NCBI GenBank assembly: GCA_000442015.1
Contig: KE560848.1
Coordinates: 219,389 to 264,036 of the forward strand
DNA: 44,648 bases
Source of the DNA: Rozella allomycis CSF55
Lineage: Eukaryota
Direction of reading: 5' to 3'
Shown piece by piece: positions 11,950 to 44,648 of the stretch (positions are counted from its first letter, which is position 1; the number at the start of each line of letters is the position of its first letter). Both the position numbers and the translations under genes were made by a program. The notes under the pieces are model-generated. The model worked only from the letters and a program-made list of their open reading frames with translations. It ran no database searches and had not been told where the DNA came from.

Positions 11950-13245
11950 ATGGGTGAGGTAACAAAGGTTAACACTGACGCATTACTACAATATGAAGTG
12001 CCTTTCATCAAGGTATAGAATGAAGAAATAATTCTATTTAGATACCTTATGAGCAGTATAAGAAGCAATATAGGCAATTGCAAAAGGTTACCGAAAGGGA
12101 TTTACAAACTTTCTCCAACCAACTAAAAGATATTCCAGGATTAATAAGATCAGGGAAAAGAAAACCTGAAGATATCAAAAAATCTGTGACTCAATACATG
12201 AAATCTATGAAGAAGAAAGTCGATGATATTTATGACGAAAACCAAAACACTACAAGTAGCCTGACCAAGAGAATAAAGCTTATGAATTGTTTTGAGAATA
12301 TCAAACAAATGGAAGATCCAGATTTTAATGTTTGGACAAGCACTTTATTGGAAAGACTAATCGTTGACTATTTGCTCAGAAATGATTTGAATCAAACAGC
12401 AAATCACATTTATAATTCATTGCCTATAAAAGTAAAATCATGAAAAAGTTCACAAAGGATTTTCTAGACCTTGATTTCTATGCAAGCTCAAAAAGAATTG
12501 CTTTATCATTGAAAAACAAGAATTGTTCAGGTAAAAATAGTTTACAGCTGGAATAAGATGCGCTTGTTTGGTGCTCTGAGAATAAAACTTACCTCAAGAA
12601 GACCAAAAGTGATATCGAGTTTCAGTTGAGATTTCAAGAGTATGTTGAGCTTTGCTCTCAAAGAAAAATTTCTGATGCTATTTCTTATTGCAAAAAATAT
12701 TTGATTCCTTGGAGAGAAACTCATCTCGAGGCTATCCAAAGGGCCGCGGCACTGATTGCTTTTAGTCCTTCTACGTCGTGTCCTGTCTATAAGGTAACGA
12801 ATGCTGGTCATAAAAATAGAAACTCTATGAAACCTCTAGATGGGACACACTTGTTTCCAATTTTTATAAAGAATGTTTTAAATTGGTAGGATTGCCGGAA
12901 AGTTCATTCTTAATTACTGCTCTAGAAGCTGGACTTTCGAGTCTGAAAACATCCATTTGCTCTCAGCCAAATAACGTAAATATTAATTGCCCTGTTTGCA
13001 ATCATGAAATTTCAAAGTTTGCATCCAAGCTTCCATGTGCTCATCACATAAATTCTCGAATAGTATGCAGAATTAGTGGGCTTGTGATGGATGAACATAA
13101 TCCACCACTTATGCTACCAAACGGCAAGGTTTATTCGACAAAAGCGTTGACTGAAATGGCTAATGTCTCTGAAGGCAAAATCACTTGCCCAAGGACTGGA
13201 TCAGTTTATCAATTTAGTGACTTGCGAAAGTGCTACGTACTTTGA
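11950..13245 (+). CDS. FYV10: GID/CTLH E3 ligase subunit Fyv10/Gid9/MAEA
   Basis: YEVPFIK/IPYE N-terminus, LisH (ERLIVDYLLR), CTLH/CRA region and degenerate RING (CPVC...LPCAHH...MDEHNPPLMLPNGKVYS...CPRTG). Four 26-29 nt introns. Confidence 0.92.
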
Positions 13246-13343
13246 AAAAAATAAAAGTAGTTTTACCGAATTTTATTTTCATCATTCTTTGTTGACTCTT
13301 TGCCATTGCAACATCACACCTTGACAACGATTTTAGGTACGTG

Positions 13344-16300
13344 ATGTCTGACCCAAACATTATCAAAGACGATGCTGAATATAAATCCCAACCACAATTG
13401 GTAAAAAATATTAATGGACATGATAGGAAAGTAATATGGAGATCGACAAGGGTGAAAGTGGATTGAATGGTAGCGGCATAGATAAGAGCCAGGAAGAGAA
13501 ATTTGAGCAAATCGAGGCAGAGTATCAAAAGACAATGGTGGAATTAGCAGAGGATCCAATGCTCCAAAAATTTAAAGTTGAGTATGAAAAGATCCACAGA
13601 ATATTATTGAAATCTCGTGAAAATGAAAAAAAGCTGATTCAGAAATGCAAAGATATTGGGCAGGAATTGTCGTTATCTACTAGCAAAGTTCAGCAGGCGA
13701 TGAAAATGTCACAAGCTGATAGAACAACAATTGCTAATTTGAACAAGGAGATTGAAAAGGCGTGGAAGATGGTGGAAACCTCTAATGAAAAGGAAGCAAA
13801 ATCGCGAGAAGGAATACAACAGTTGAAGATGGAGATTGCTAATTTGCAAAAAATGATCGAAGGAGGAACAGGGTTGAGCATCGACCAAGAGAGGGCGGTG
13901 AATGAATTGATTCATGTAAGGGGAATAAACTTTGTAGATTTAGATTAAAGAGGAGTTGACTAAAGAGAGAGATTCACAGTTGAACACGATTGTTAGTTTG
14001 AGGAATGAGATTTCCGAGTTGACACAACGAATTAGGACTATGGATGCTGAAAAGACGGAAGCTGAGCATGAAATATCGACGTTGAAAGATTTGATAGCAA
14101 CGAAAAAGAGTGAAGGGGATAGAGAGCAAAGGAACAAAGACAAGTTAGAAAAGGAGTTGAAAGAGGCAAGAACGGTTATTGAAGCTAAGAATGCTGAAGT
14201 GAGAAGCAAGCAAGACATGGTGAATAAAACCAAAGAAGAAATCAATAGAATGGAAACGCAAATGCGAGAGCAAAAAATGTTGTTGGAAAAGGCTCAAAAA
14301 GACCAAGAGACATTGACGACGAGGTAAGAGGAATGAATTTTTTTAACAAGGTAAAACATTACAATGCAAAATAAAGGTCAATCAAGTTGCAGCAAGATTT
14401 TGAAGAGCAAATCTTGGCGACTTCAACAATGTTGGCAGAGAATCAGCAAAAGGCGAATGATTTAAGAATAAAAGAAGAAGAAATTTTAAGAATAAAAGAA
14501 GAAATTAAAAGCGTTAATAAAATTAAAGTAAAAAGCGAAAGAAAGCAAAACAGGAAAATTTGTCACGAAAAATCAAGCAATTGGAGGAGCAAAAATATGA
14601 AGCGGAGCAACAAAGAGATAATATTAAAGTAATGTGTGAAACTGGGTAAAAAAGAATATAAATCATACGTTTGAACGAGAGATTGAAGGATTGAAGAAGG
14701 CGGCTGAGCAAGATAAAAAAGCTTTGGAGGATTTAGTTAGGGAGAGAGATATTTTGAATAGGAGTGTGGTGAAAGCGAACAATTCCACTACAAAGCAATC
14801 AAATCTTGTTAAAATTAATGAGCAAGCAATAAGAAATTTAGAGAATGAGATTTCTAGTTATAAAGAAGAAGCTTCAAAGCAAAGAAAGGTAAAAGGGGGT
14901 TGAGATTTAGAATAGGTAAATTTTTATTTTCTATTTTGAAAGATTATTTTTCAATTAGAAAAGGAGAGAGATAAATACATTTCAGAAGCAACGGAAATAC
15001 AAGCGCTATTTCATCAGTCTTTGGAAGATTTGAAGATGAAGGAATTGGAAATTTTTGATTTAAAAAAGAAGATTTCCGAATCTGAAACTAAATTGAAGCA
15101 GCAGCAAGTATAAATGGTTTTAATGTTGAATAGAATTTGTATGAAGCTGTTCGTAGTGATAGAAACCTTTATAGCAAAAACTTGATAGAGAGCCAAGATG
15201 AAATAATGGAAATGAAGCGGAAATTAAAAATAATGAATCATCAAATAGAGCAACTGAAACAAGAAATTGGATCAAAAGAAGTAAATCTGAATTCTGAAAT
15301 TTCAGAAATAGGCGGCCTTAGTTAAAGAGCATTTTGAGCATCAAAAAGTACAAAAAGAAAAAGAGAGTTTAAAAAATGAATTAAATAAATTAAAACAACA
15401 AAACGACTTGGCGCAACAATATATTCAGAATCAGTCAACAGAAGAACAAAAATTGAGACATATAATTAGTGAAGCTGACAAGGAAAAGGTGCAGCAAAAG
15501 AAGGAATTCGACTCTATCGTTCAAGAGAGAGTAAAGGGGATTTAAGGATTCAAAAAGGATATTTTAGGAACACAATTAATAAGAAGGAATGATGAATTGG
15601 CCCTCTTGTATGAAAAAATAAAAATTCAGCAATCAACGTTGAACAAGGGTGAAATTCAATACAGAGAAAGACTTGAAGATTTGAGGGTTTTAAAATTAGA
15701 AATAAAGAGATTAAGAAGAGAAAAAAATCTTCTCCAATCTGAAACCGTCAACGTTGATGGATTAAGACAAGAAATTTACAGAATCCAAAGAGAATTGCTA
15801 AGGGAAAGAACCAAAGTGAAAGTGTTGGAAGAAGAATTGGAAAACCCAATGAACATTCATCGTTGGAGAAAATTAGAAGGGAGCGATCCAGCGGCGTTTG
15901 AAATGATTCAGAAAATTCAAACTTTGCAAAAGAGATTAATTTCTAAAACTGAAGATGTTGTGGAAAAAGAATTAATCATTCAATCAAAAGAAAAATTATA
16001 CGTCGAGTTGAAGAATATTCTAGCCAGACAGCCTGGCCCTGAATTGGCTGAGCAAGTCAACGTTTATCAGCAACAACTGAAAAATAAAACTAGACAATTA
16101 AAAGTAAATAAATTTCTTTTTTTCTTTCTATTAAAGGCTATGGCTTCGGAACTAAACATGTACCAGGCTCAAGTCAATGAATATCGCTTTGAAATAGAAA
16201 GAATCAACAAAGACATGATTCATCTCAAAAAGAAATATTTTGATCAGAAAAAGAAAGAAATCAAAAGGTAAATTTTCATTATTTAAAGAAATCAAAAGGT

Positions 16301-16440
16301 AAATTTTCATTATTTTCTTTATCTGAAATCAGCCAAACTCTATCATTCCATCAATAGACCAAAATGGTCCTAAATTTGTTGGCGCGGGATTTAACATGAA
16401 TACACTTAAAGCGTCAATAATAGAAGCTGAAGCGACTTGA
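13344..16440 (+). CDS. CFAP58: Cilia- and flagella-associated protein 58 (CCDC147), long coiled coil
   Basis: LYEAVRSDRNLYSKNLIESQDEI, RDILGTQLIRRNDELALLYEKIKIQ, ELENPMNIHRWRKLEGSDP and C-terminal PKFVGAGF. It has many introns; the 3' splice structure near 16268-16332 is ambiguous. Confidence 0.9.
16254..16315 (+). repeat. Exact 31-bp tandem duplication spanning a CFAP58 5' splice site
   Basis: aaagaaatcaaaaggtaaattttcattattt occurs at 16254-16284 and again at 16285-16315. Confidence 0.95.
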
Positions 16441-16559: not shown

Positions 16560-17072
16560 TTAAGTGCTGGATTTTATAATGTAATAAAGGGGCCTTAGCT
16601 CATCCAACATTGGAAGAAAATTCTTTACAACAAAATTCATCTCTTTACCTCAAATAATACAACCAACTCTTTACTCTTCTTACATCTAATTGCAAGATAG
16701 TGCACAACCTTGAATCTAGTAATACCTTCAACAATTAAAACTTCATCAATGTCAACACTATCAATAAAGCACTTCTTTATTGGTCCAATCCCATAATACG
16801 TCGACAACTGTATTCCTACCTGGGGTATCAACAACACAGACTCTTTATCACAATCTATTACATTTCTTACCTTGTCTAACGGTTGTCTTGAAATAAAAAA
16901 CAAATAAAACCACTATAAAAAATGCAGCATATATATAATTCAACGTAAAGCAATACAAGAGAACCTGTTAATTTGTTAACTTTTGTCTTACCCCCAAAAT
17001 TGCTGCATAAAAAATGTCTGATATACTAACAATGTTTTTATCATTTTTGATCGATATTTGTTTGGAATTCAT
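16560..17072 (-). CDS. GPI15: GPI-GlcNAc transferase subunit PIG-H/Gpi15
   Basis: Hydrophobic N-terminal segments, then ESVLLIPQVGIQLSTYY...IDEVLIVEGI.RFKVVHYLAI...LVVLFENFLP. Three short introns. Confidence 0.85.
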
Positions 17073-20360: not shown

Positions 20361-21221
20361 CTACTCTTGAATCTTAATTTTCTTGCGATTCTTTGTACCA
20401 AAACAGTTTCTGAGTTGAGTAAGAGAATCTTCAACACTAAAATCTTCGCTTGATGAGATAGAATTGGCAGAAGTAATAAACCAATTGAACCAGCGAAGAA
20501 TTTCAGATAAACTAGCGCTTGAGTTGTACGTTCCGTCGTCTCCAACATTAAGGACTACGATAGGTGAGGCATAAACAATCGCATCCACATCAATAGCAAA
20601 GAAGCGAAAGAGAAGTCCATTGGTTAGAGCAGCAAACACAGGAGTATTCTTTCCAGCGGCCAACCGTTTCTTGAGCAAACATCCTGCTTCACAAAGGACT
20701 TGAGCAATTGAACTATCAGGCCATTCCTGCTTCGCTTGGACAACCAAAATAGACGAGTCCATAGTACCAACATATTGGAATTTAGAGTACCCCAACATAT
20801 AGTCCACATCGCCAGTGTAGCCGAATCCAGTTCCTTCCCAGTCATTCTTAACTTTACAGAATCCCCAAAGGCGATGTAGAGCGGCGTCAGTATTTTTTAA
20901 CAAGACTTCTGTAAGGATTGCGTCAATGACAAGTCGGCAGGCCTTTTCGTTGTCCAATACCCAGACCTGGTCAATCTTCTTCAAAGCTTCACTGAGCCAG
21001 AGACTAGGAGATACTGTTTTAAAATCATCTGGGATGTGAAGTGAAGGAGCTTTGACATTAATATAGTCAAGGTTCAGCGCTAGACCATCAGGTCGAACAC
21101 AGTGGTCATAAGTAGCTTTAGAGAAATTAATAGATGGTTTTTTCTTATTCTTGAATTGCTGGACTTGTTTCCATTCTTCTTCTGTGAGTTCGTTCAAGGT
21201 CTTGCTCAATAGTTCGTCCAT
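20361..21221 (-). CDS. Intronless PD-(D/E)XK restriction-endonuclease-fold protein (CRN-effector-type REase-like)
   Basis: NEKACRLVIDAIL helix, TGDVDY...ILVVQAK...IAQVLCEA...VFAALTNGLLFRF, and a basic C-terminal tail (KNRKKIK). Confidence 0.65.
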   Translation of the reverse strand: MDELLSKTLNELTEEEWKQVQQFKNKKKPSINFSKATYDHCVRPDGLALNLDYINVKAPSLHIPDDFKTVSPSLWLSEALKKIDQVWVLDNEKACRLVIDAILTEVLLKNTDAALHRLWGFCKVKNDWEGTGFGYTGDVDYMLGYSKFQYVGTMDSSILVVQAKQEWPDSSIAQVLCEAGCLLKKRLAAGKNTPVFAALTNGLLFRFFAIDVDAIVYASPIVVLNVGDDGTYNSSASLSEILRWFNWFITSANSISSSEDFSVEDSLTQLRNCFGTKNRKKIKIQE

Positions 21222-21282
21222 TTTGTTTTGAAAAATGAATGTGTAACCTAGCCACCCCCCCTTGACTTTCGGGTTTGGTGAT

Positions 21283-21421
21283 TGGGAAGGACCTGGAATC
21301 GGCTACACTGACATGCAACCAAAAGGCACGAGTCCATAGTATCAACAGATTTGATTTAGTAGGACCCCAACATACCATTACCGTCCACATCGCCAGTGTA
21401 GCCGAATCCAGGTCCTTCCCA
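21283..21421. repeat. 28-bp inverted repeat (27/28 match) with an 83-bp spacer
   Basis: 21283-21310 tgggaaggacctggaatcggctacactg versus the reverse complement of 21394-21421, tgggaaggacctggattcggctacactg. Confidence 0.9.
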
Positions 21422-21480
21422 GACATTTTTGACTTCACAAAATCCCCAAAAAGTTTATTTCGAGCGGCTGTATTTTTTGA
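21312..21480 (-). pseudogene. Degenerate partial paralog of the adjacent REase-fold gene
   Basis: Translates as GFCEVKNVWEGPGFGYTGDVDGNGMLGSY*IKSVDTMDSCLLVA, against GFCKVKNDWEGTGFGYTGDVDYMLGYSKFQYVGTMDSSILVV in the intact gene. It has a stop and a frameshift. Confidence 0.85.
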
Positions 21481-21557
21481 AATATGCTGTAAACGAACTT
21501 GAGGACTTGCGTCGTCACTGCCCAATCAACGACACCATTTTGTAATTTTTTTGCGAA

Positions 21558-21646
21558 CTAGCGGTGCTTCGCTCGCATTAAAAAACTGAATTGTGTTCGA
21601 CTTCGTTATGTTTCTCGCATAGATAAAACCGATACTATAATATAGA
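21558..21646 (-). mobile_element. 89-bp non-autonomous Helitron-like mini-element
   Basis: The minus strand reads A|TCTATATTATAG...TAATGCGAGCGAAGCACCGCTAG|T: 5'-TC, 3'-CTAG, a subterminal GCGAAGC hairpin and an A^T target with no TSD. It shares sequence with copies at 23863 and 24392. Confidence 0.65.
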
Positions 21647-21652
21647 TGGTAN

Positions 21653-22768
21653 GGAACAATTCTGTCATAATTTTCCGCTATGAATTTGTCTATATTACCT
21701 TTTAAAACAAAACTTTCAGATTTCGTAAAGATGGTGGATAGACCGTGATCAGAAAATTTGCTTATAGAGCGCAGATTATGAGAAAATGAAGGACAGTGTA
21801 TTATGTTTTTGATTATGCCTTGAAAATTGTTGGCTTGATAGGACATTGATCCGGTTCCTTCGGAAGTCATATTAGTACCGTTGGCTACATGAATTGTTTC
21901 CAACTGTGGAGCGTAAAAATCAAGATGATCTTTATTGTTCACCATGTGGTTAGAACATCCATAATCGGCCACCCATTTGACGGCAAGCATGGCAGCTGGT
22001 TTTGCGTTGGTCTTCGAAACGTTTGCACAAGTTTTCGTATTTTCATAATGACGATAGTGGAGACCGGCAGCCTTGCATTTGTTGCATGTTGGAGCTTTCT
22101 CAGGATGGAATTTCCAGCATGAACTGGATTCTCGGTGATGTTCACATTGGCGTTTGGCGAGGAAGCTAGAGTGATCAACTTTCTTTTCGCGAACGTTTTG
22201 GAGTTCGTGTTCACGAAGGACCCGGTTACGAACATTTTCTAAGGTCAGAGCTTCCGCTTCTTCATTTTCAATATCTTTTTCAATAATGGAGCGTACATTG
22301 TTGAAGTGCGACGGCAGGGACGAAATACCAATGAGAACAGTCAGGTCGGTAATTTTGATACTATCAGAGCCATTGGATGCTGTAAGATTTCTTTCAAGCG
22401 TTGCCACACGATTAAAACCGTCTTCGAGAGTACCGATAGCAAAGTCGTGCGCAATAAGTTCTTGAATAAATTTGAGTTCCTAGGAACGCTGTTCACTCTT
22501 GTATTGGCTTTTAAGTCGTTCCCATGCATCAGAAGCGTCAACGGTGTCCAGAACTAAGTGAATCAAGGTTTTGTCAAGGTTGTTAACGATGGCATGATGT
22601 GCGTGAGTATTTTCGGTTTTGGGACTATCCTGCTTGTTGTCCCACAGTTGATGTGCCTTTAAGAGTAGTTTCATTTGGAAGGCCCATTATTCAAAGTTTT
22701 CTTGGCCTTTCAGGGGAAAGCCGATGGTTAGCGTAGTGACGTGAGTGCGTGGTGCTGGTAGATCAGCA
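21653..22768 (-). mobile_element. Degenerate Ty1/copia LTR-retrotransposon gag-protease fragment
   Basis: LKGQENFE*WAFQMKLLLKAHQLW (gag N-terminus), ASDAWERLKSQY, knuckle-like H..SSCW..HPE, protease WVADYGCSNHM and IIHCPSFSHNLRSISK. It has in-frame stops and is bounded by Ns at 21652 and 22769. Confidence 0.85.
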
Positions 22769-22859
22769 NTTGTAAAACCACTGGAAATCCTATTTATATC
22801 TAAAGCAAATAATCTATTCTTCTCGGCTGGATATCACTTGAACTTGAATTGGTAAGCTT

Positions 22860-23150
22860 GACCCTTAGCGAAACCAATGTCAGCTTCCTTAAGAGCAGGT
22901 GCATCATTAGTCTCATCGCCAGTTACACCTACAACATTCCCGTCTTTTTTAATAGTATAACTTTTTCAAATTTATCTGTCGGAGAAGATATGACAACAAC
23001 TTGAGCTCTTGGTTAATTTGCCTTCTTCGCTTAATGCCATGAATGCGGGTCAAAATTAACTGAAATTCATTACCTTCAATAGCTATCCCATTTCCATATA
23101 AAATCCCGCATTCTCTGTCAATGTACGATGCTGCTAATACGTTGTCCAAG
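22860..23150 (-). pseudogene. Frameshifted fragment of a P2B Ca2+-ATPase (PMC1/PMCA-like)
   Basis: [40 protein letters not shown] and [27 protein letters not shown] appear in shifting frames; the canonical motif is [21 protein letters not shown]. Confidence 0.85.
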
Positions 23151-23493
23151 GCATTTTTTAACTGATTTTGGAATGGATCCCGCGATGACAAACGAGCTTC
23201 GACAAATGGAAGAATTCGTTGGAACTTGGAAGAGAATTGCACCAAGATCAAATGCAAGATCTGCTTTATATGCTTACGCGACAGGAAGTTGTTCTAATAA
23301 ATTTCAAAATATTATTGTTTTACGTTTTTGTAATAAGAATATCAATTTTGTATGCTGTCCCGAAATGCCTATTCACAACTTCCCCTACCTTTATTGCACG
23401 AATGATGGATCAGTTCTCGAATCGCTTAATCGGACTTGAAATTGAAAGTACAAGGAAATTGAGCAATCAATTAAACTCTTTTTAGTTAAGTGC

Positions 23494-23568
23494 AAGTATG
23501 GAGTACAGATGCCTTTCTAAGGNGTATGATTTTGCAATTGCCTTGAGAGGCATCTGTGCTCCATACTT
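23494..23568. repeat. About 28-bp imperfect inverted repeat around an N gap (MITE/TIR-like)
   Basis: aagtatggagtacagatgcctttctaagg (23494-23522) versus ccttgagaggcatctgtgctccatactt (23541-23568), with an N at 23523. Confidence 0.75.
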
Positions 23569-23581
23569 TTAGACCGTAATT

Positions 23582-23797
23582 GAGGGTCTGTACCCGCTTC
23601 ACTCGCTCTCACGTTGAAAAAAATGTTTTTTATAGACATTAGACTATTGTACTGAGGCTAAGGCGAGACTAACAACGAACAAAGCCAAGCATTGTTTATT
23701 TACCCATCATCAGAAACGATTAAAGAGTAGTTTGGGCTCAGAAGACAACGTATTAGCATTCAAAACAAAAAATAACACTCATTGTTGGCATCATGGA
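23582..23797. repeat. Dispersed repeat copy A (about 215 bp)
   Basis: Aligns with 24021-24239 through shared blocks gagggt..cgcttcactcgct, taaggcgaga, attgtttatttacccat, gctcaga.gacaacgtat and tcatgga. Confidence 0.85.
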
Positions 23798-23862
23798 AGG
23801 TTCATCTATATTCTTGACAGCCAATTACCATAGCAGCTCCTTGTTGTCAACCTTTCCTTTAA

Positions 23863-23930
23863 CTAGCGGTTGTACTCGCTTCGCTCGCATTAAGAAATGG
23901 TTATTTTTCTCGCATAGGTAAAATTGATAC
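23863..23930 (-). mobile_element. Helitron-like 3' terminus, copy 2
   Basis: Minus strand TAATGCGAGCGAAGCGAGTACAACCGCTAG|T. The internal tttctcgcatag.taaaa..gatac is shared with the 21558 element. Confidence 0.65.
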
Positions 23931-24020
23931 CCCATACTTGCGCTTAATTAAATAAGTTTGTTTCTAGGTTGACCTCATAGATCGCATATGTTTCATTAAC
24001 CCCGGGTTCGCACGCCAGTC

Positions 24021-24239
24021 GAGGGTTTGCGCTTCACTCGCTTTCACAATCCCATTGAAAAAGTGTTTTTTATAGACTATCTTCCTGAGGAGGTAAGGCG
24101 AGATTAACAACTAACAAAGCGAAGGATTGTTTATTTACCCATTGTATTGGCTATTTTATCCACATGAAAAGCTTAAAGCTCAGACGACAACGTATAAGCA
24201 TTCATAATAAAAAATACTACTCATTATTGGTATCATGGA
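24021..24239. repeat. Dispersed repeat copy B (ends at the N at 24240)
   Basis: Diverged direct copy of 23582-23797. Confidence 0.85.
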
Positions 24240-24391
24240 NATTTGTTGGCAGAATCTATTTACTCGTTCTTTTTTTAACTTCTTAGAAGATAACTTTTTC
24301 CTGAGAGTGAATCCTTAAACAAATCCCAATGGAATTACTAGAATAATTGTGACAATTGTGACAATGTCGAATGAATTATCAATTGCCTATA

Positions 24392-24422
24392 CTAGCGGTT
24401 GTACTCGCTTCGCTCGCATTAA
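24392..24422 (-). mobile_element. Helitron-like 3' terminus, copy 3 (truncated by the N at 24439)
   Basis: 24391-24422 is identical over 32 nt to 23862-23893. Confidence 0.65.
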
Positions 24423-24853
24423 AAATAGAAGAATTAATNGTTTGAAATGACAGTTATACAGTGACATAGAGTTAAAGTCGATGGGTAATCAACGCCAATG
24501 GACTATTAGAATGTTTAGTCGCACTATATATTTTCAAGATTATGTTTTCGTATAGTTTGACTTTGGTTCAGATTGTTCCTTTTAAATGAAAATGATCCAT
24601 TGTGAGTGCCTACTACAGGGGTCGATGCCAAGAAGTGTACTGTTTACAATTAATTTATCGAATTACCAAAGAGAAAAATTAGAGTGACTCGAATCTTTGA
24701 AACTGCTGGCAGCTGCTGCTCTCCATCTATAAAAAATACTCAAAAGTATAAACAAAGCAACAGATTTCTGTTACTTTTATCAAATTTATTTTCTGTTAAT
24801 TCACATCACATTTCACAAAATATATTTTTTGACCTATCAACCGATGATTTGGA

Positions 24854-29900: not shown

Positions 29901-32606
29901 AGTTTTGATTTCATCATTAGTTAAACCGATATTCAAATTGGTTTGCGACGATTGATTGGATTCACTCTTCTTTTCTTCAACTACACATTATGCGAGTTAA
30001 AATAATTTTACTATAGGATGTCTTTGTTTCTTGATTTTGAATGCTTAAATTTCCTGCAGATCTCTTTATCTCCGTTTTGCTTCCTAATTCAGTATTGGAT
30101 TGTGATTTCAATGAATGTTTAGATGCTTGAGAATTAATAACATTTTGAGATGTTCTCATCTCCATGTTTACTTTAGAATCTATTCTTTCTTTTTTCAAGT
30201 TATCTGGTTGATTCATTTTCACGGCAAGTATTGATGAGTTCTCTTCAAAACCTTCTTTTATTATCATGCTTGCCTGGGATGGCGTCCTTTCTCTCAATTC
30301 ACCTTTTCAAATAGAATAATCAATACTTACCCAAATTATTTTCATTCTCTTCAATAGTGAATTCTGATTCACTTTGTTTGATTGGTTTTTCATCACCCTC
30401 CTCATCTTCAAATTCTTCTTGAGAATAACTTATTTCATTTTGATTGGGATTTTTCGCTGTAATCGAAGAAGTAGAATTCGGATTTGGCGCTTCTTTAGGT
30501 TTACTTTCGGTATATAATTGTTCATTTCTATCTTGAATGTTAGATTGAGATTTTGATTTCGGATGTAGGGAGCTATTTTATGGAGTCATGTAAGCTTACC
30601 CTGAACTTTCGTTTAGCTTGGGCACTGACTGGCTTTTGTTTCTATTATCTTTTTGTTCGTTAGTCTCATCGTGTATTTTATCCTTGCTTCTCAGAATTCC
30701 CTTTCTCTCAGTTTTGCTCATTTCAACTCCTTCTGAGCTATTTGTATTTCCTCGAATAGTATTTGCTGATCGTGATTTGTTAAGGGTTGTGTTAGATTTC
30801 ACGCTTTCTTTGGAACCTAGAGTGCTAGACTGTGTTTTAACAGATTTAATATATTTGGATCCTGCAACTGACTCCTTTGACCACTTTGTTTGCTCACTAT
30901 CTACAATTGTTTGATTATCCGCTTTATCGACATTATCGTTTTCGGAGGTTTTAACAATCATACTTTCGTGGGAACCTGTGTCTTCTTCATCTTCAAAATC
31001 TTCACCATATTGATCTTTATTAGGGGAATCTGGAGAGGCATTAACGATCACTGATGGCTCTTGATGCTCCGATTTGGTCGTAGGTCGCAAGCTTTCTTCA
31101 CTAAACATTACGCTTCGGGAACGTGAAGTCTTTTTTTCCAGATGGGTAGTGGATGTTGAAATGTCTATCACTTCTTGTCTCGTTTCGCATGATTCATTTT
31201 TAGTTGCTTTCACAGCTTCTAAAACTTCACTGGTTTCGGTGTATTCATCCTTGTTATCTATCTTGTTTCTGACATTTGTGGTAGTTTTAGGACGTCTTAA
31301 CAGTTTTGATTCTTTAACTGCTTCTTCGTGAAAATTATTAGGTGAAGCACCGTATGCTGACTTCGCCCGATCAAGTCTGGTTTGCTCGTTTTGATTCACT
31401 TTTTCTTCATTTTTGGCAATCAATTGGGAATATTTGTCAAACAGTATCATATATCTTCTTTCATAGTCTTTTAAACGCTTTTCCGATTTGTTTAGAAGTG
31501 CCGTCTTTTTATCCAATTCTCTAGTTGCTTTCTCAACGGCAGCTTGAAGCTTAGATTTCGCGTGTGTTAAACCCTCATTGGCAGCTATTATTCTTAAAAA
31601 TTGTAAAAGGTTACCCTCAAGGTCTTTGTGATGCTTAGTTAATGTCTTGTTTTCTGATTGCGCTTGAGTGTATTTAGCTTTGTATTCTTCCAATAGTTCA
31701 GATTCTCTCTTTATTTCTTCTTGTTCAATAAAGGTGGCTTCCATTTCTTCAATTATCTGGGTGAGTGTTGAAATCTGTAATGTAAAAGTTGTGATTTTTA
31801 CTTCCTTTGCATAAGTACGATTTTCACGTTCAAGTTCAGCTAATCTTGTAGGGCGACTAGCCGTACGCAAATCAGCAAGTTCTTTTTGAAGCTCTCTTAT
31901 TGTAGTTTCATTGTTCTTAACCAATTTCTTGAGCGCATGAACCAACTACATAACTCATAGCATATCTGTTTACATGTTCTTCTCCTTTCGGTTTTTGACC
32001 GTGAAACTAAATTTAAAACCTTTTTTCAACTTACATTAATTGCCATGGAATCCTCGATCTGCTTCTCTCTTCGCGACAAGTCCTCTTCCGCCTTTCGCAG
32101 CAATGATCGCATGACTCTTTTTTCTTTTTGGGATTCATTAAGAGCCATTTTTAACTGTAAATTTTCATCGTAAAGGTCTTCTGTGGATTTATAATGTGTA
32201 GTGACCATTTTGCCATCCGCGCTTTTCGTTCTTGTGACAACTGGTATTAATTAAAAAAAATGATTACATGAAGATCTACGACCTTGATTATAATCTAATG
32301 AAAGCCTATAAGGCTTAGTAATGGAGGGTGTTAAACTCCATTGCCTAGGCCTTGACGTTGAAGGTCTCGGCTTTGCACTTCTTGGTCTATTCGGAGATCC
32401 TGCGTTAAATGAACTGCAATTTTATTACTTAAAGGTGTACTCATCTCAAAGAAATCATCAGTATCCGATTCTGGCTGCTTTACATCTAATATATTCAATT
32501 GATGATAAATACCGATAGATATTTGGGTATGGTTCATGTGACCACCGCTGGTAACATCTATATTATCCTTTATATTAAGGCTATGAAGATTCATTACACT
32601 CGGCAT
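26967..32606 (-). CDS. Large protein (roughly 1,750 aa): IQCE-like N-terminal coiled coil plus a long Ser/Gln/Lys tandem-repeat region
   Basis: ORFs 32331, 32026, 30596, 29977 and 26967 appear to join via 27-31 nt introns, with ATG at 32606 (MPSVMN). STEDLYDENLQLK...MRSLLRKAEEDLSRREKQIE and ELERENRTYAKE resemble the IQCE N-terminal domain as recalled. Confidence 0.7.
27590..29090 (-). repeat. Coding minisatellite with a 57-bp (19-aa) unit, SIKAQSQTQLNEDVKQSNH-like, about 25 copies including three 78-bp variants
   Basis: The 57-nt period is visible at 27781/27838. The 26-aa variants carry an extra DVK(L/Q)SSQ. Confidence 0.95.
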
Positions 32607-34125: not shown

Positions 34126-35776
34126 ATGTTCAAAAGCTTGTCAATATACCTATCTCCTGTCAGAATGTCGACAGCAAAATTAAATCATTTAAAAGAAGTA
34201 GTGGAAAAAAATGGTACTACAAAAATGTGATGATGTTGAGGTGGAGAAATTTGTAGTTCTATGCCTGGCGCTGATGTTGCCGTTGTTAATGACTTGACTG
34301 CTTACGAAAGGATTAAAAAAATAATTGGAAAATCAAAGTGTAAAGCTGTTGTTGTGCCCAAGTGGATATCGCAATCGTAAGATACGCAATTAATAAAGGA
34401 AGAATTGATTGTTGGAGGGCTGTGTTGTCGACCCCCAAATTTTTGATATTCAAAAAAATGAAGAGACAAATAAGAGAGAGCAATGCAAAAGAAAGGTTGA
34501 AGAGATGNGCAAAAGAAAGGCTGAAGATATGTAAGAAATGTTTTAAGGTATTTTAGAACGCCAGTTACTTCACCTAAAGCTAAAAGAAAACAAGAGGATA
34601 TAAATCTTTCGAAATGGGAATGTATGCGACCAACGCCTGATATTTGCGAGAATCAAAACCTAGTTGAGGCGCTAAAGGTTTTACAAGAGCAACGTTACCT
34701 GATAGGCGAACAAATGAAGTAAAATTGATGATCATTCAATGAACAGTTCAGATGCATATGCCAGAGCTATTGCTTCTATAAAAAGTTATCCCAATCTTAT
34801 TGATAATATCAATCAAATCAAAGAGTTGCCTAATGTTGGTGAAAAAATACATTCACTGTTGATTCAATTCATTGAGACAGGGAAGATAATAATGGTTAAT
34901 CAAATACTGAATAATGAAAACTATAAAATATTGAAACTTTTTTGTGGGATTCACGGTAATATACCTGAAGATTAAATGAAAAGGCGTTNGTAATATACCC
35001 GAAGATTAAATGAAAAGGCGTTGGACCAACAACTGCAGGCAAGTGGTTAAAGGAAGGGCATAAAACTTTGGAAGATGTGGAAAAGCATGTAAAGCTAAAT
35101 AACGCGCAAAAAATTGGTCTTAAATATTATCACGACTTTAATGAATTGTAATCGTCATTAATTTTATCATAAAGAATGACAACTGAAGAGGCTATGGATA
35201 TTTTTGAAACCATAAAGAAACAAATTTTGAATCTCGATGAAGGATTTGTAGTTACTGCTATAGGTGGCCTTCGTAGGAAAAAGGAATCTCATAATGATAT
35301 TGACATCCTTGTTACTCATCCAAAAGGCCTGGAATGTGATTTATTGGACGAATTGATACCTTTACTTACAAATAAAGACATTGTTGTGGAGACTATTGTC
35401 CATTATGATGGGAACATTGGCACGTCAAGCTCCAGTGATAACCATTTCGACCATTTTAATAAAGTAAGTCAAAAGAAAATAATGCTAATAGTGGTATGGT
35501 GTTGTTAAATCACCGTTAACAGGAAAATATAGGCGGTTAGACTTGGTAATGACCACCACAAAAGAGTATCCATTCGCATTGCTTGGTTGGACAGGTTCAA
35601 AAATGTTTGAAAAGAGCATTCGTCGCTATGCTGCTGAAATTAAGAATTGCAAACTTACTAGTCATCATTTACTGGACTTGTCAAAGAATGAGATGGTTGA
35701 ATGCCAGAATGAAGAAGAAATATTCGAGTACCTTGGATTTCCTAATTTTGTCCAACCAGAATTCAGGAATTGTTGA
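34126..35776 (+). CDS. POL4: Family X DNA polymerase with N-terminal BRCT, Pol mu/TdT/Pol4 type
   Basis: YARAIASIKSYP, HhH LPNVGEKI, GGLRR..SHNDIDILVTHP, DHFNK and RRLDLV...ALLGWTGS. The model is interrupted by N-joined duplications at 34508 and 34989. Confidence 0.88.
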
Positions 35777-37158: not shown

Positions 37159-38987
37159 TTAATCAGTTTCTAGTGTGCTTTCATTATTTTCTAAGGAAAG
37201 CATTATGGCATATTCAATCAATTCGTTTTCCGTCATACCTTGAATATTATTCGCTCTTGAACGTTCATGCCAAGCAGACATTTGTTCCTGCATTTCTTCT
37301 CTATCTTCAAGATAATCTCTAAATTCTTCATTCATTTCTCGATGTGTTTCTATAATGCAAAACAGGGTCCATATTTACCTTCATCTCGTCTACCATTTGA
37401 TATGGAGGTCCGCTTTGAAGATTTTCGCCTTTTTTCTCATTTTATCATCTATCACGATTTACTTGTAGCTGCTTCTGCGCTTCCACCAAATTGCCAATAC
37501 TTTATAACTCCATCATACGCAACACAAATCTGACCTTCCCAAACATGAAACACTGATATGTTAAATATTTCATCTCTATTGTAACTTCGTGGTCGTTTCT
37601 CCTCGTATCCACAATTCCCTCCTTTCAACACTGACTTGCTACCTATCTCCCAAACACAAAAGTCACCATTCTCACTATAAAGAAGGACTAAAGTTATAAT
37701 ACCTAATTGCAGCGATTTGGAAACAATCTATGTGGACTTTAACGATGGAGCAAAACAACCCTGAATAAACTCTGTTATACTTTTGAAAAAAAACATTACG
37801 ATGTTTGATCTAACTTAAAAGTACCATCATCCAGTTTAAGCACTACATATAACAGCACAGAGCCCAAACTATCACCCACACAAACCATAAAGGTTGATTC
37901 ATCGACAGATTGAACTCTCATCGATCTCGCAAACCCAGGCAATTCTACAAGAAAGCAGGGTGACATTTCTGCCTTATTTGGATCAATAATACCAATTTTT
38001 CTGCTCGCTCTGGAGTAAAATACAATAGAATTCGTTCGGGAACTATAGGAGATCCAATCAATTGGATGATCAGACACTTGCGAATATCCTATCAAACGCA
38101 ATAGTGGTATTTCCAAAACAGCAATGTAACCATTGTCATAAGCAAGTATCAAATATGAATCCACAACTTTCATATAGTTTATATTTCCAGACGGTGCAAA
38201 TGATTTGGTTTCCTTAAACCCAATCCTCTCCATTAATACCATATTCCATAGAGAGCATCCACCATTATCATCAAGAGCTGCTAGCCAGTTTTGATGATAT
38301 ACTTTAATATTTACAATTGTGCGCGAGTGTATACCTGACAAGTTTTGCATGTGGGCATGTGATACGAATCCAGGTGCAACATTCTTATAAACAATTAAAC
38401 GTCCATCATGATGTCCGCATACTATTACTGATCGATTGATGAAAATTGTCGATGGTGGAAATATGGATCCGTTCAAAACACAATAGAGAGATTCTTTATA
38501 CCATTTTCCGCTATTCAAACCTGCAGACACGACAACACCTAAAAATTAAACACCTACTTCTCATTTACCTAGTTGAAAACACACTATGTTAGCCTTGGTA
38601 GTGTTGTAATCAACGATCAAATCGGATGCATATCCCCAAGTGGGATCCATTCTCAAAACTTGAAAACAAGTTGGTTTCTTAACTTGCCAGCTACTATTTG
38701 TAAAACGAACGTGATTAATGTTACCGCCAGTATCTCCAACGATGTAGATATTCACTTCGCCAAGATTCACTATTTAGTCTTCTCAACGGAAGCTTTCCCC
38801 AGAATACTTGACAGGCGGCTTTCCAAAATAGATCATCAGTTAAAATAGCATGCCACTTTTTACAAGTTAAGGATGCATTAAACTTTCATAAATTTATTAA
38901 ATTTCTTACAATGTCAATAGGATCTTGTATGTGACTCAATACATGCACAAGAATTTCCTCTGGGATAGACGCAATAGGACTACTCAT
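37159..38987 (-). CDS. F-box/WD40 protein with C-terminal UIM (Ufo1/Pof10-like)
   Basis: Spliced F-box SIPEEILVHVLSHI...ASLTCKKWHAILTDDLFWK, linker LRRLNSESWRSEY, WD-like repeats and UIM MTENELIEYAIMLSLE. Confidence 0.85.
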
Positions 38988-39378: not shown

Positions 39379-40971
39379 ATGAGAAAAGTTTTTATTCTTT
39401 GGGGAATCCTCGGTTTTATTGTTGCATATCGGCATCGTTTTAATGAGCCTATCAGAGTTCTTCTACTTGGTTACAATGGTGCAGGCAAGTCAACAATAGT
39501 CAACGTGCTTGGTGGGTTGACCACAGATGCCAAAGAAATAGCTCCTACAGGTTCAAGTAGCTTTTCGTTTACGAAGGAGTGCGAAAAGTACTATTTGACA
39601 CATGAGGGTAGATCCTTGTATGTTGTTGACACTCCTGGATTTGGACCAGATGAGGAGTGGAATACCAAATTAAGAAAACAAATAGCTACCGATGTTCCAC
39701 GTTTGTTATTTGGATTTGATGCGTTGATTTTTGTAATTCCCGTGGAGAAGATTAGGGAGCGTGATTTAGTTTGGATTGATTTTTTTAATTCCTATATTGA
39801 CCAAGAAAAATTAATCGCAGGAAAATTAAGTCAAGGTATTATTGTTTTTACATATGCTGATGACATTCCAATGGATCCAAAGTTTGAAAATGAGCTAATT
39901 TCTCAAGCTTTGATAAAAACAATGATGACAAAATTTATTTTTTATCGCCATGAATCAGGAAATAAGAACGGTATTAGACTTGGACCTAGTGAATTGAGAA
40001 CCGCATTTCGTAAACAGGTGTGCACTGATTTGATTGAGTTGTTCGAGTTTAACGATTGGAAGCACTATGATACTGACGAAATGATAAAGACCACAGAGAA
40101 ATTTGAGTATCAAAAACTTAAAAGTGAAGAGTATCGAAAGCTCCGTGAAGAACTTGAAAAGTCATTTATGAGAATTAAACATTTTAGTGAAAGAGTATCG
40201 ACTGATCTTAGGGTGAAAGTAAACAAAGTCCTTGACAGTGCCCCTAAATCGTTTAAAGTTCGTCGATCTGTAATTCAACATGACACACTTATGGCCGAAC
40301 AGTTTTTCTACGAAAATACAAGAAAATTGAGAGAATATGTACAAGAACACGACTTTTTGAAGAGGCAATTAGGAATGATGTCTAACAATGTTACCACGTT
40401 GATGAATGAGTACTCTATCGCACAGCAAGAATATAATATCGAAAAAGAACTGTTTATCAGTGAAACAAGAAAAATTACAGCGGTGCAATTTAGAATTCCA
40501 TTTAATCCAAATCGCGCTAGTTTTCCAGTCAGAATGACAAAGGCATTTAGTTTCAATACTGTTCCAGTTTATTATCGGGCTGTCCAGGAGAATGTACAAC
40601 ATGAACTGGATTTGGTTCCAGACTACTACATTGAGAAATTCATGTCAAGAGCGGGTTTTAGCAATGACAATTTTCGTCAACAATCTTATCGTAACACTAG
40701 GCCTACTTTTAATGAATACCTTGATAGAATTCAAGTCTTGAAAGAAAAAACGGCCAGTGTTTATAGGAGAATCAAAGAAATTAAGCAGCTAAGAGAGGAA
40801 ATGAAAAACTCTGTTTTTCTTTTCAAGGATTATGAGCACAAAGAAATCATCCTTGAATTGGGTGAAAGGGTTTTCACGACAAGCCAGATACGTCAAGAGA
40901 TATTGAATTCCAAAGTAGTATATATGAACGAAAGCCAAAGGGAGGCAAACGCAAGTAGATATTTTATTTGA
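39379..40971 (+). CDS. Signal-peptide AIG1/GIMAP-like GTPase with coiled-coil C-terminus, copy 1
   Basis: MRKVFILWGILGFIVA, RVLLLGYNGAGKST, switch I FTKEC, VVDTPG and IVFTYAD; intronless. Confidence 0.85.
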   Translation: MRKVFILWGILGFIVAYRHRFNEPIRVLLLGYNGAGKSTIVNVLGGLTTDAKEIAPTGSSSFSFTKECEKYYLTHEGRSLYVVDTPGFGPDEEWNTKLRKQIATDVPRLLFGFDALIFVIPVEKIRERDLVWIDFFNSYIDQEKLIAGKLSQGIIVFTYADDIPMDPKFENELISQALIKTMMTKFIFYRHESGNKNGIRLGPSELRTAFRKQVCTDLIELFEFNDWKHYDTDEMIKTTEKFEYQKLKSEEYRKLREELEKSFMRIKHFSERVSTDLRVKVNKVLDSAPKSFKVRRSVIQHDTLMAEQFFYENTRKLREYVQEHDFLKRQLGMMSNNVTTLMNEYSIAQQEYNIEKELFISETRKITAVQFRIPFNPNRASFPVRMTKAFSFNTVPVYYRAVQENVQHELDLVPDYYIEKFMSRAGFSNDNFRQQSYRNTRPTFNEYLDRIQVLKEKTASVYRRIKEIKQLREEMKNSVFLFKDYEHKEIILELGERVFTTSQIRQEILNSKVVYMNESQREANASRYFI

Positions 40972-41184: not shown

Positions 41185-42774
41185 ATGAAAAAAATTCTAC
41201 TCTTAGGATTTCTTGGTTTTATTGTTGCCCCACCAGTTGCCAATAATGTTTGTAATCGTCCTTTGAATGTATTGACTCTCGGATACTACGGTGCAAGCAA
41301 GTCAACCATCATAAACATGTTGAATAATTTCTGTGATTTGGACTCTGTTGTGAAAGAAGCCTCTACATCTTTAAGTAGTGCTGTTACACTTACGACAATG
41401 TACCCTTGCTCTTATGGAGGGAGATCTTTGAATGTTGTTGACACCCCTGGATTTGAAACAGTGAAATCTTCAAATTTTGAGATCAGAAAAAGGATAGTCG
41501 CTGAAGTCTCTGATATCTTCCGTGATGGTATTGATGCATTCATTCTTGTGGTGCCTTTGGGGAGAACACCAGAACACAGCATTGTGGATATGATCGATTT
41601 TCTAAATTCATTGATTACGAAAGATGGTTTTAGCCGCGGGTTTGTTGTCTTTACCAATGCTGATGGTATGTTGATGAATGCAATTGACGAAAATGCACAA
41701 GTTTTACGTTTTAGGGATGAAATCGTCGCTTTGGCTCCAAGGGCAGAAAGATTTTTAAATTCTGTGAAATATTTGTTTTTTCGTCATGATTTTGAAGAGA
41801 CGGGTGTTACTAAGCTTGATACAAGTGGTGTTAAAAAACAATTTCTTGATCGAGTTTACACTGAAATATTTAAGCTTTGTGAATCCAACAATGGAAGTAC
41901 ATTTAGTACGAATGAAATGAAAAGAGCCAAAGACAAATATGAGAGTCAGAAACGTGAAATCGAAAAATATCGAAGTATTCGTAAAGAACTGGAAGTGTCT
42001 ATTTCAGCCATAATTAATCAAAATGAAAATGTTTCTTCTGATCTTTTTGACAAAATAAAAAAGATGCGTGAAATTGCCCCTTCGCTGACATTTCAAAATC
42101 CAAAAGATCAAACGCAAGATGAAATCTTGATAGCGGAAAAGAACTATCATGAGCTCACAAAAAACTTGAGAGATTCCATACACACACACAGCTTTTTGCA
42201 AAATCAATTAAAAATGATGTCTAATAATGTTACCACGCTGATGGAAGAGTACTCAATAGCAAGGCAAGAATATAATATCGAAAAGGAATTGTTCATCAGT
42301 GAAACAAAGAAAATTGAAGCAGTACAATTTAGAATTCCATGTTATGAAAATCAGTACTTAGCGTGGTATTATCGGCAAGCTCAGGAGATTATACAGCGTG
42401 AACTCGATTCGGTTCCAAAGTATTACATTGACAAGTACATGTCACGAGCAGGTTTTGACAATGACAATTTTGTCACGCCAAAGTTTTATAGTGTTAATCC
42501 TACTTTTAATGATTTCCTTGAACAAATACAAGTGTTAAAAGAGCAAACAGCAATTGTTAACAACAGGGTTTCAGAAATTAGGCGATTGAAGGAGGAAATG
42601 AGAAACTCCGTTTATCGCATCAAAGATTATGAGCACGGTGAAAAAATTTTTGTACTGTATGCAAGTAACTTCAATGAGAAAATACGCCAAGATATAATGA
42701 ATTGCAAAGTAGTTTTTATGAACGAAAGTCAAAGGGGCGGAGAACTAAGTGCATTAATTTTCAAAGCAAAATAA
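41185..42774 (+). CDS. Signal-peptide AIG1/GIMAP-like GTPase, copy 2 (degenerate P-loop)
   Basis: MKKILLLGFLGFIVA, GYYGASKST, VVDTPG, LVVPLGRT and VVFTNAD; intronless. Confidence 0.85.
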   Translation: MKKILLLGFLGFIVAPPVANNVCNRPLNVLTLGYYGASKSTIINMLNNFCDLDSVVKEASTSLSSAVTLTTMYPCSYGGRSLNVVDTPGFETVKSSNFEIRKRIVAEVSDIFRDGIDAFILVVPLGRTPEHSIVDMIDFLNSLITKDGFSRGFVVFTNADGMLMNAIDENAQVLRFRDEIVALAPRAERFLNSVKYLFFRHDFEETGVTKLDTSGVKKQFLDRVYTEIFKLCESNNGSTFSTNEMKRAKDKYESQKREIEKYRSIRKELEVSISAIINQNENVSSDLFDKIKKMREIAPSLTFQNPKDQTQDEILIAEKNYHELTKNLRDSIHTHSFLQNQLKMMSNNVTTLMEEYSIARQEYNIEKELFISETKKIEAVQFRIPCYENQYLAWYYRQAQEIIQRELDSVPKYYIDKYMSRAGFDNDNFVTPKFYSVNPTFNDFLEQIQVLKEQTAIVNNRVSEIRRLKEEMRNSVYRIKDYEHGEKIFVLYASNFNEKIRQDIMNCKVVFMNESQRGGELSALIFKAK

Positions 42775-43007: not shown

Positions 43008-44648
43008 ATGAAAAAAATTCTACTCTTAGGGTTTCTTAGTTTTATTGTCGCTCCACCTGTTGCCAATAATGTTTGTAGTCGTCCTTTAAATGTTTTGATG
43101 CTCGGATACTATGGTGCAGGCAAATCAACAATCGTAAACGTACTGAATGGTTTGTGTGACTTACACCCAGGTGATGCCGCAGAAATAGCTGCTACGGGCT
43201 TAGCCAACAATGTAGTTACAACTGAGTGCGAACTCTACTCTTGCACATATGGAGGGAGATCTTTGAATGTTGTTGACACACCTGGATTTCAAACAGTGGA
43301 AGCTGCGAATAACGCTGTGAGGAACCTCATAGCTGACGAAGTTCCTGAACTTTTTCGTGATGGTATAGATGCTTTCATGCTAGTGTTGCCCTTGGGAAGA
43401 ACACCTGAGCAACGTATTGTGGATATGATCGATTTTCTTAATTCATTAATTACCGAGGAAGGTTTTAACCGCGGCTTTGTTGTTTTTTCCCACGCTGAGG
43501 GCATTTTAATGAATGAAAATCAAGAAAGCGAAAGAATTTCAGAATTTCAGAGAACTGTCCTGGCTTTGGCTCCAAATGCAGAAAGGTTTTTGAATTCAGT
43601 GCAGTATATGTTTTATCGCCATTATTACGGACTTAAAGGTCAAATACCGCTTGATTACATCAGTGTTCGAAGGGAATTTCTCGGACGGGCGTACAATAAC
43701 ATATTCCAGTTATGTGAAGCTAACAATGGAAACACTTTTAGTACGATTGAAATGAGAAGGGCCAAAGAGAGATTTGATAATCAGAGACGTGAAATCGAAC
43801 AATATCGGACAATGCGTAAAGAACTTGAAGAGTTATTTTCAGCAATTATTAGTCGTAATGAAAATGATATTTCGTCCGATCTTCTTGAAATAAGAAATAA
43901 TATTGGTGATAATGCCCCTGCAACATTTGAAATTCCAGGTGGTCTAACTCAGGATGAAACATTAACAGAAGAAAGGAATTTCCATGAGCAAACAAGAAAT
44001 TTGAGAAATTACGTCAATGAATTTATCGCTTTGCAGAATGAATTGAGTATTATGTCTAGAAACGTTACCGTATTGACGGATGAGTACTCTATCGCGCGTC
44101 AGAAATATAATACCGAAAAGGATTCGTTTATTAGTCAAACGGAAGAAATTAAAGCTGTGCAATGTGGTCCTCTATATAATCCAAGTGAAAAAAATTTTGG
44201 GCAGGCATTGTTAATGGCGATGTTGCCTGGTTCAGAGTTTGCTCTTCGAATGCTTTGTCATAACATTCGCCAGAATATACAACGTGAACTGGATTCGGTT
44301 CCAAAGTATTATATTGACAAGTACATGACAAGAGCGGGTTTTAACAATGACAACTTTGACATACCTGTGCTTGATAATAATAAGCCATCTATTAATGATT
44401 ACCTTGCACGAATTGAATTATTGGAAGAAAAGACCGCAAGAATTAGTAACAGGATTACAGAAATTAGGCAATTGAAAGAGGAAATGAGAAACGCAGTTTA
44501 CCTTGTGGAAGATTATGAGCACAAAGAAAAAATAATAGAGGAGGGTGGGATATTGTTCGCGCATCCGCAAATGAAGCAAATGATATTTAAGCAGAAAGTA
44601 GTTGTTATGAATGAAACTCAAAGGTTTCAAGGAGATCGTCGTATATTT
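43008..44648 (+). CDS. Signal-peptide AIG1/GIMAP-like GTPase, copy 3 (stop codon lies beyond the window)
   Basis: ATG at 43008 gives MKKILLLGFLSFIVA, GYYGAGKST, VTTEC, VVDTPG, LVLPLGRT and VVFSHAE. It is absent from the ORF track, consistent with no stop before the window end. Confidence 0.85.
   Translation, partial: MKKILLLGFLSFIVAPPVANNVCSRPLNVLMLGYYGAGKSTIVNVLNGLCDLHPGDAAEIAATGLANNVVTTECELYSCTYGGRSLNVVDTPGFQTVEAANNAVRNLIADEVPELFRDGIDAFMLVLPLGRTPEQRIVDMIDFLNSLITEEGFNRGFVVFSHAEGILMNENQESERISEFQRTVLALAPNAERFLNSVQYMFYRHYYGLKGQIPLDYISVRREFLGRAYNNIFQLCEANNGNTFSTIEMRRAKERFDNQRREIEQYRTMRKELEELFSAIISRNENDISSDLLEIRNNIGDNAPATFEIPGGLTQDETLTEERNFHEQTRNLRNYVNEFIALQNELSIMSRNVTVLTDEYSIARQKYNTEKDSFISQTEEIKAVQCGPLYNPSEKNFGQALLMAMLPGSEFALRMLCHNIRQNIQRELDSVPKYYIDKYMTRAGFNNDNFDIPVLDNNKPSINDYLARIELLEEKTARISNRITEIRQLKEEMRNAVYLVEDYEHKEKIIEEGGILFAHPQMKQMIFKQKVVVMNETQRFQGDRRIF

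Follow-up and report, generated by a model that had tools for sequence, protein, structure and literature searches.

We identified in a CFAP58-like gene two intervening sequences, of 53 and 54 nt, that each consist of two complete minimal introns abutting at an exon of zero length. The gene spans positions 13344–16440 of the plus strand of the 44.6-kb stretch of DNA that was analyzed in its entirety (the window), from an ATG at 13344 to a TGA at 16438–16440, and has about 12 intron sites. The interpretation that we favor, with some reserve, is that the 53 nt at the first site are two standard spliceosomal introns placed end to end, which would be removed in two reactions. This first double intron (14324–14376) had been predicted to be composed of 27 and 26 nt with an AG/GT joint (here and below, a slash marks a junction), and the sequence agrees exactly in coordinates and lengths. 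Unit A (14324–14350, plus strand) has 27 nt (GTAAGA...ACAAG), with GT at 14324–25 and AG at 14349–50; unit B (14351–14376, plus strand) has 26 nt (GTAAAA...TAAAG), with GT at 14351–52 and AG at 14375–76. The donor of unit B adjoins the acceptor of unit A at AG/GT, leaving an exon of zero length between them. The upstream exon (13944–14323, plus strand) ends ...ACG ACG AG in phase 2 and the downstream exon (14377–14527, plus strand) starts G/TCA ATC, encoding ...R SIKLQQD. Ten GT..AG removals around the site preserve the reading frame, and only that of 14324–14376 yields the junction ...TLTTR/SIKLQQD... that is colinear with the orthologues. That all 53 nt must go, as the original prediction had also claimed, is borne out by three related proteins (P0001, P0002 and P0003), which are gapless across TTR/SIK.

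The exon at 15558–16103 matches the CFAP58_CC profile (PF21771) in Pfam with an E value of 3.6e-25, which places the gene in the CFAP58 family. A search with the exon sequence 13944–14321 as the query retrieved the three relatives, all of which carry PF21771. P0001 is a protein of 309 aa, with 77% identity over the exon-3 query, that is encoded on a 15.6-kb contig; a metagenome scan for this contig returned as its sole match a 32% relative (L001), which was left out. The other two are longer (867 aa for P0002 and 868 aa for P0003) and are apparently mRNA-derived: the contig of P0002, at 2782 nt, is too short for introns and the source of P0003 is a transcriptome record. The alignment of the whole gene model is colinear with both of them and shows an intact gene whose conservation extends to the C-terminus.

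The second abutting pair is located 513 nt downstream of the first, at 14889–14942, and comprises 54 nt divided into 27 and 27. Its unit A (14889–14915, plus strand; 27 nt, GTAAAA...AATAG) introduces in-frame TGA and TAG codons if retained and its unit B (14916–14942, plus strand; 27 nt, GTAAAT...GAAAG) an in-frame TGA. The joint reads AATAG/GTAAAT, with the AG at 14914–15 directly abutting the donor at 14916–21, and removal of the 54 nt gives KQRK/IIFQLEKERD, colinear with P0002 and P0003. All four units are strong introns in their own right. Against 53 ordinary introns of the window, the intron model (leave-one-out) scored units A and B of double intron 1 at 10.3 (98th percentile) and 9.3 (87th percentile) and those of double intron 2 at 11.3, above all 53 (100th percentile), and 9.7 (92nd percentile). 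The two halves of the first pair had been described as dissimilar, and the alignment of their interiors indeed falls at the 7th percentile of 1378 intron pairs; for the second pair the figure is the 43rd percentile. The recent tandem duplication of one unit, for which the halves should be alike, was rejected on these grounds; if the units did arise by duplication, the event must be old. Further, the introns of the CFAP58-like gene showed no greater likeness among themselves than introns of other genes do (Mann-Whitney p 0.84). Neither the halves nor the introns of the same gene are more alike than others, so nothing points to recent duplication or to a family of introns that is spreading. In the second pair, the 3' part of unit B (…TTCTATTT(T)GAAAG) recurs in an intron of a different gene (30303–30330, minus strand), with an alignment score of 10 where the maximum among the 1378 ordinary pairs is 9; the resemblance may be due to chance in T-rich sequence.

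The consequences of retaining one unit depend on the genetic code. A ciliate code with TGA as the sole stop was considered and ruled out by the placement of TAA and TAG: in models built with TGA only, in-frame TAA and TAG fall mostly in the last residues, as for example right after the HDEL end of a BiP-like Hsp70 (Pfam Hsp70 E value 2.4e-206), whose gene reads 519 aa without a stop under the standard table up to HDEL. Because in-frame TAA and TAG cluster at protein ends and the Hsp70 gene is open until HDEL, both codons are stops here, and the gene models were rebuilt with three stops. Stop usage is therefore standard with respect to TAA and TAG, although intron sizes resemble those of Paramecium. 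The original expectation that removal of unit A only from the first pair creates AGG TAA proved correct, and removal of unit B only has the same immediate effect in frame. With TAA and TAG as stops, every partly spliced form is truncated; in the half-spliced RNAs predicted for the two pairs the stop lies at the junction or within 8 codons.

To survey the genes of the window, we used a purpose-built finder that combines codon log-odds, a trained intron model and three stop codons, and counted the removals in models that scored at least 25 (n = 63); orthologues served as a check for the introns of the CFAP58-like gene. Lengths (number of removals in brackets) were 18 (1), 21 (1), 26 (10), 27 (19), 28 (13), 29 (9), 30 (1), 31 (4), 34 (2), 43 (1), 53 (1) and 54 (1) nt. 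Thus, 56 of the 63 removals measure 26–31 nt, with a mode of 27 nt, and two measure 34 nt, in line with the range of 26–34 nt given earlier for the other introns; by this standard 53 and 54 nt are long for the organism. The mode, shared by 19 of the 63 removals, is a multiple of three, so such lengths (3n) are not avoided. The finder made at least two errors, a false double intron in a PIG-H gene (below) and the 43-nt call (38770–38812, minus strand). We dismissed the latter as an artifact because the stretch is open coding sequence and a 31-nt unit shortly downstream gives the same change of frame. The finder also missed a stop-free intron of 33 nt (16104–16136) that the orthologue alignment, which sets it 2 nt off, demands. 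Long introns of 37–110 nt in the first gene models were likewise discarded, as they resolve with the trained model into introns of 26–34 nt or into gene boundaries. No convincing removal of 35–52 nt consequently stands among the 63 predicted in the window, and the only longer ones are the 53 and 54 nt of the CFAP58-like gene. The 53 ordinary introns are A/T-rich and offer little signal beyond a GTA(A) start and an (A/T)AG end. With signals this weak, length must help recognition, and the narrow range of lengths makes it probable that length is part of the recognition signal.

The alternative that the 53 nt form one ordinary but unusually long intron, spliced in a single reaction with 14324 as donor, 14376 as acceptor and a branch point in the downstream half, with the central AG/GT as a relic or an occasionally used site, is possible, if rather doubtful. 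Introns of about 53 nt are routine in most eukaryotes, and the ceiling of 34 nt is drawn from 63 predicted sites. One-step removal also fits the orthologue alignment, which cannot tell it apart from two-step removal since the mature mRNA is the same. Since both pairs belong to one gene, they may have a local history in common and not reflect a genome-wide rule, and the intact central sites could be young relics of the origin of the pair. Against a single long intron stands, besides the gap at 35–52 nt, the coincidence that both long removals carry a central AG/GTA where it cuts them into halves of modal length. When intron-like interiors were simulated with a first-order model, a central AG/GTA giving halves of 26–29 nt arose with a chance of 0.0013 for 53 nt and 0.0020 for 54 nt, and one giving halves of 20–34 nt with a chance of about 0.009–0.010. 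In addition, all four halves exceed the 86th percentile as introns, as noted above. Nor does either sequence fold so as to bring its outer splice sites together: the 53 nt have no stable fold (z -0.22; 77 of 200 shuffles fold as well) and the 54 nt can form a weak hairpin across their joint (-8 kcal/mol; z -1.43; 18 of 200 shuffles are as stable). At the scale of the window, the pattern GTAA-N20-25-AGGTA-N21-26-AG occurs 3 times where 0.45 are expected, a number that none of 100 shuffles reached, and one of the 3 matches is not a double intron. Abutting units that both score at or above the lower quartile of real introns are present in four places, namely the two pairs of the CFAP58-like gene, the PIG-H site and 16268–16332.

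For removal of the pair in two reactions, we propose the following pathway. The spliceosome would pair a donor with an acceptor about 26–31 nt downstream, by a form of intron definition, which we infer, in which length belongs to the signal. The 53-nt stretch would then not be removable whole and would be excised in two reactions. If unit A were spliced first, the exon end ...GAG would meet GTAAAACA and thereby the intact donor of unit B (GTAAAA), so that the predicted intermediate carries a regenerated donor, which would act in the manner of the ratchet points known from recursive splicing. If unit B were spliced first, the acceptor of unit A (ACAAG) would be left beside the downstream exon. 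Either order would produce an identical mature mRNA. Because the splice sites at the joint overlap physically, the reactions probably follow one another and do not coincide. Whether the spliceosome of this organism has a hard upper limit near 34 nt, such that longer interruptions are tolerated only as chains of minimal introns spliced via zero-length exons, we consider evenly balanced.

Both pairs could be spurious if the assembly were in error at these sites, if the gene were a pseudogene or if one half of each pair were coding, and a site in the PIG-H gene illustrates how the pattern can mislead. The finder had reported there a third double intron (16623–16674, minus strand), which we rejected: the PIG-H profile (positions 1–67 of 67, E 1.1e-16) ends exactly with the first unit, so the first unit is coding sequence and only the second is an intron. 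For the CFAP58-like gene such a reading is barred by in-frame stops in both halves combined with the gapless orthologues, which have no extra residues at the site, and the rest of the gene is intact to its conserved C-terminus. Seven sequencing runs from four studies cover the stretch wholly or partly, and we compared the assembly with DNA contigs of four of the runs (X1, X2, X6 and X7), in which no splice joint was seen. The X1 contig (9061–15836) differs from the assembly at seven positions, none of them inside either double intron, and is thus identical over both; contigs of X2 (12440–16283) and X6 (13583–16283) span both as well. No assembly joint falls within the gene among the 15 joints listed, of 25. 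The notion that there is no intron pair is already largely refuted by these data, and we regard it as very improbable. In the PIG-H gene, GTAAAGAG opens the final 26 nt of the exon and also the adjoining intron of 26 nt; exon sequence may have been duplicated here to create an intron, or the site may be alternatively spliced.

Comparison with P0001 provides a glimpse into the history of the pairs. In P0001, the open frame continues without a break across three successive intron sites of the window (14324, 14528 and 14629, within 14324–14654). If its 15.6-kb contig is genomic, the locus has no introns at these three sites; if it is a transcript, they have been spliced out. At the site of the second pair, the frame of P0001 reads past KQRK into 33 further residues. 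When this tail was back-translated and read in the +2 frame, 20 of 23 residues were compatible with the next exon of the window, starting after 29 nt, compared with at most 9 of 28–31 residues at other offsets and with the other shift. These matches suggest that the relative carries a single 29-nt intron where the window has 27+27 nt. One intron of 29 nt versus 27+27 nt at the same site implies that a whole unit was gained or lost, and the comparison suggests that introns turn over rapidly between these relatives, whose identity over the exon-3 query is 77%. Intron units seem to come and go whole.

The same comparison bears on whether the pairs have a regulatory function. Incomplete removal of a regulated or leaky unit would lead immediately to a stop and lower the output of the CFAP58-like gene, so that the pair would serve as a brake. 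This we judge improbable. Such a function would agree with the stop at or within 8 codons in every partial product and with the occurrence of two such pairs within one gene. However, the ordinary introns of the window mostly carry stops too when retained. Further, because the relative has one intron at the second site and none interrupting the first, the arrangement in pairs is not conserved.

A possible route to abutting units is present in the same gene, in the form of a tandem duplication across AG/GT. A perfect 31-nt tandem duplication (16254–16315) spans the 5' junction of the last intron and makes a 31-nt GT...AG unit directly next to the resident intron of 34 nt. Removal of 31+34 nt (65 nt) at 16268–16332 does not restore the conserved C-terminal frame, which is kept only if a 21-nt intron and the 34-nt intron are spliced out around an exon of 10 nt. 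The contigs of X1, X2 and X6 all break at 16283/16286.

The closest parallels are found in recursive splicing. Zero-nucleotide-exon recursive splicing is established in long introns of Drosophila and vertebrates, and the statement of the original prediction that the process is known from very long animal introns was correct in this respect yet incomplete, as cases have also been documented in two yeasts. Spliceosome profiling uncovered recursive splicing with a zero-length exon in a 336-nt intron of S. pombe and in a 375-nt intron of C. neoformans that is divided into 210+165 nt. Both double introns of the CFAP58-like gene display the juxtaposed acceptor and donor that characterize this type of splicing. 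As at animal ratchet points, AG and GT are adjacent, a donor would be regenerated at the exon end, removal would proceed piece by piece and no exon is left. The animal introns so described are very long and each step shortens them, whereas here the pieces are minimal introns that add up to 53 nt. Moreover, either order of removal would be workable here, since the downstream unit is itself a complete intron; and the animal cases are backed by RNA, whereas the CFAP58 pair is seen in DNA. The yeasts are likewise organisms with short introns in which a longer-than-usual intron is in fact a pair of introns flanking a zero-length exon. Their units measure 165–210 nt or more and occur as single cases, in contrast to the CFAP58 units, which measure 26–27 nt, are of modal length and occur as two pairs in one gene, all at the level of genomic sequence. 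In absolute terms, 53 and 54 nt are tiny by comparison with the recursively spliced introns in the descriptions available to us. The arrangement of two minimal introns is probably a new variant of zero-length-exon recursive splicing.

Stwintrons offer a second comparison. By definition, the internal intron of a stwintron sits inside the donor, branch point or acceptor of an external one, which turns functional only once the internal one is out, and the two are removed by consecutive standard reactions (PMC7138796); this agrees with the earlier description of fungal stwintrons as nested. The likeness lies in a complex intervening sequence removed by consecutive splicing. The CFAP58 units lie side by side with their ends intact; since they are adjacent and complete (GTA...AG) rather than nested, they are not stwintrons. 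Tiny introns are also known from ciliates, among them Paramecium (about 25 nt), Nyctotherus, and Stentor and Blepharisma (15–16 nt), and in organisms with the shortest introns intron size may itself become a recognition signal that limits the spliceosome to a size range (PMC5014332). The window resembles the ciliates in its very narrow intron lengths, its weak signals and a proposed intron definition with size in the signal, and differs in that TAA and TAG are stops, unlike in Paramecium, and in its mode of 27 nt. We found no mention of abutting introns in the portions of the ciliate intron literature that were accessible, nor anything relevant in those linking Paramecium with tandem introns or recursive splicing. 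The original statement that no description was known for tiny introns has so far withstood the search, which covered accessible article text.

If the units are spliced separately, the pairs constitute a natural test of how a minimal-intron spliceosome measures intron length. The machinery would prefer two 27-nt excisions over one 53-nt excision, and two spliceosomes would be able to act in turn on overlapping sites. Recursive splicing would then extend from very long animal introns and yeast introns of 300–400 nt to the minimum intron size. With a hard ceiling, it would operate at the smallest known scale, and intron sequence could grow, or introns could join old ones, without breaking the length rule. 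There are also consequences for annotation: gene finders with a strict window of intron lengths break such genes, and finders without one hide their composite nature. The single 29-nt intron of the relative versus the 27+27 nt at the second site bears, in turn, on how introns are gained and lost.

Additional duplications and repeats were observed elsewhere in the window. At 34956–35017, a 34-nt tandem duplication, which contains one N (34989), repeats an entire intron of 28 nt together with 6 nt of exon in a gene whose last exon matches the DNA polymerase beta thumb (E 8.6e-19). Splicing of two units there would add 2 residues, and one 62-nt excision would give ...GIHGVGPTTAGKW..., which would correspond to the usual helix-hairpin-helix motif. 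The region at about 21000–24500 is multi-copy DNA, with a contig depth of up to about 8000 versus about 280 in the flanks, several single N and, in each of the four runs, many joints and loose ends. Toward the end of the window, three neighboring intronless genes (39379–40971, 41185–42774 and 43008–44648) encode look-alike proteins of about 530 aa, the first of which matches an AIG1-type GTPase (E 8e-11).
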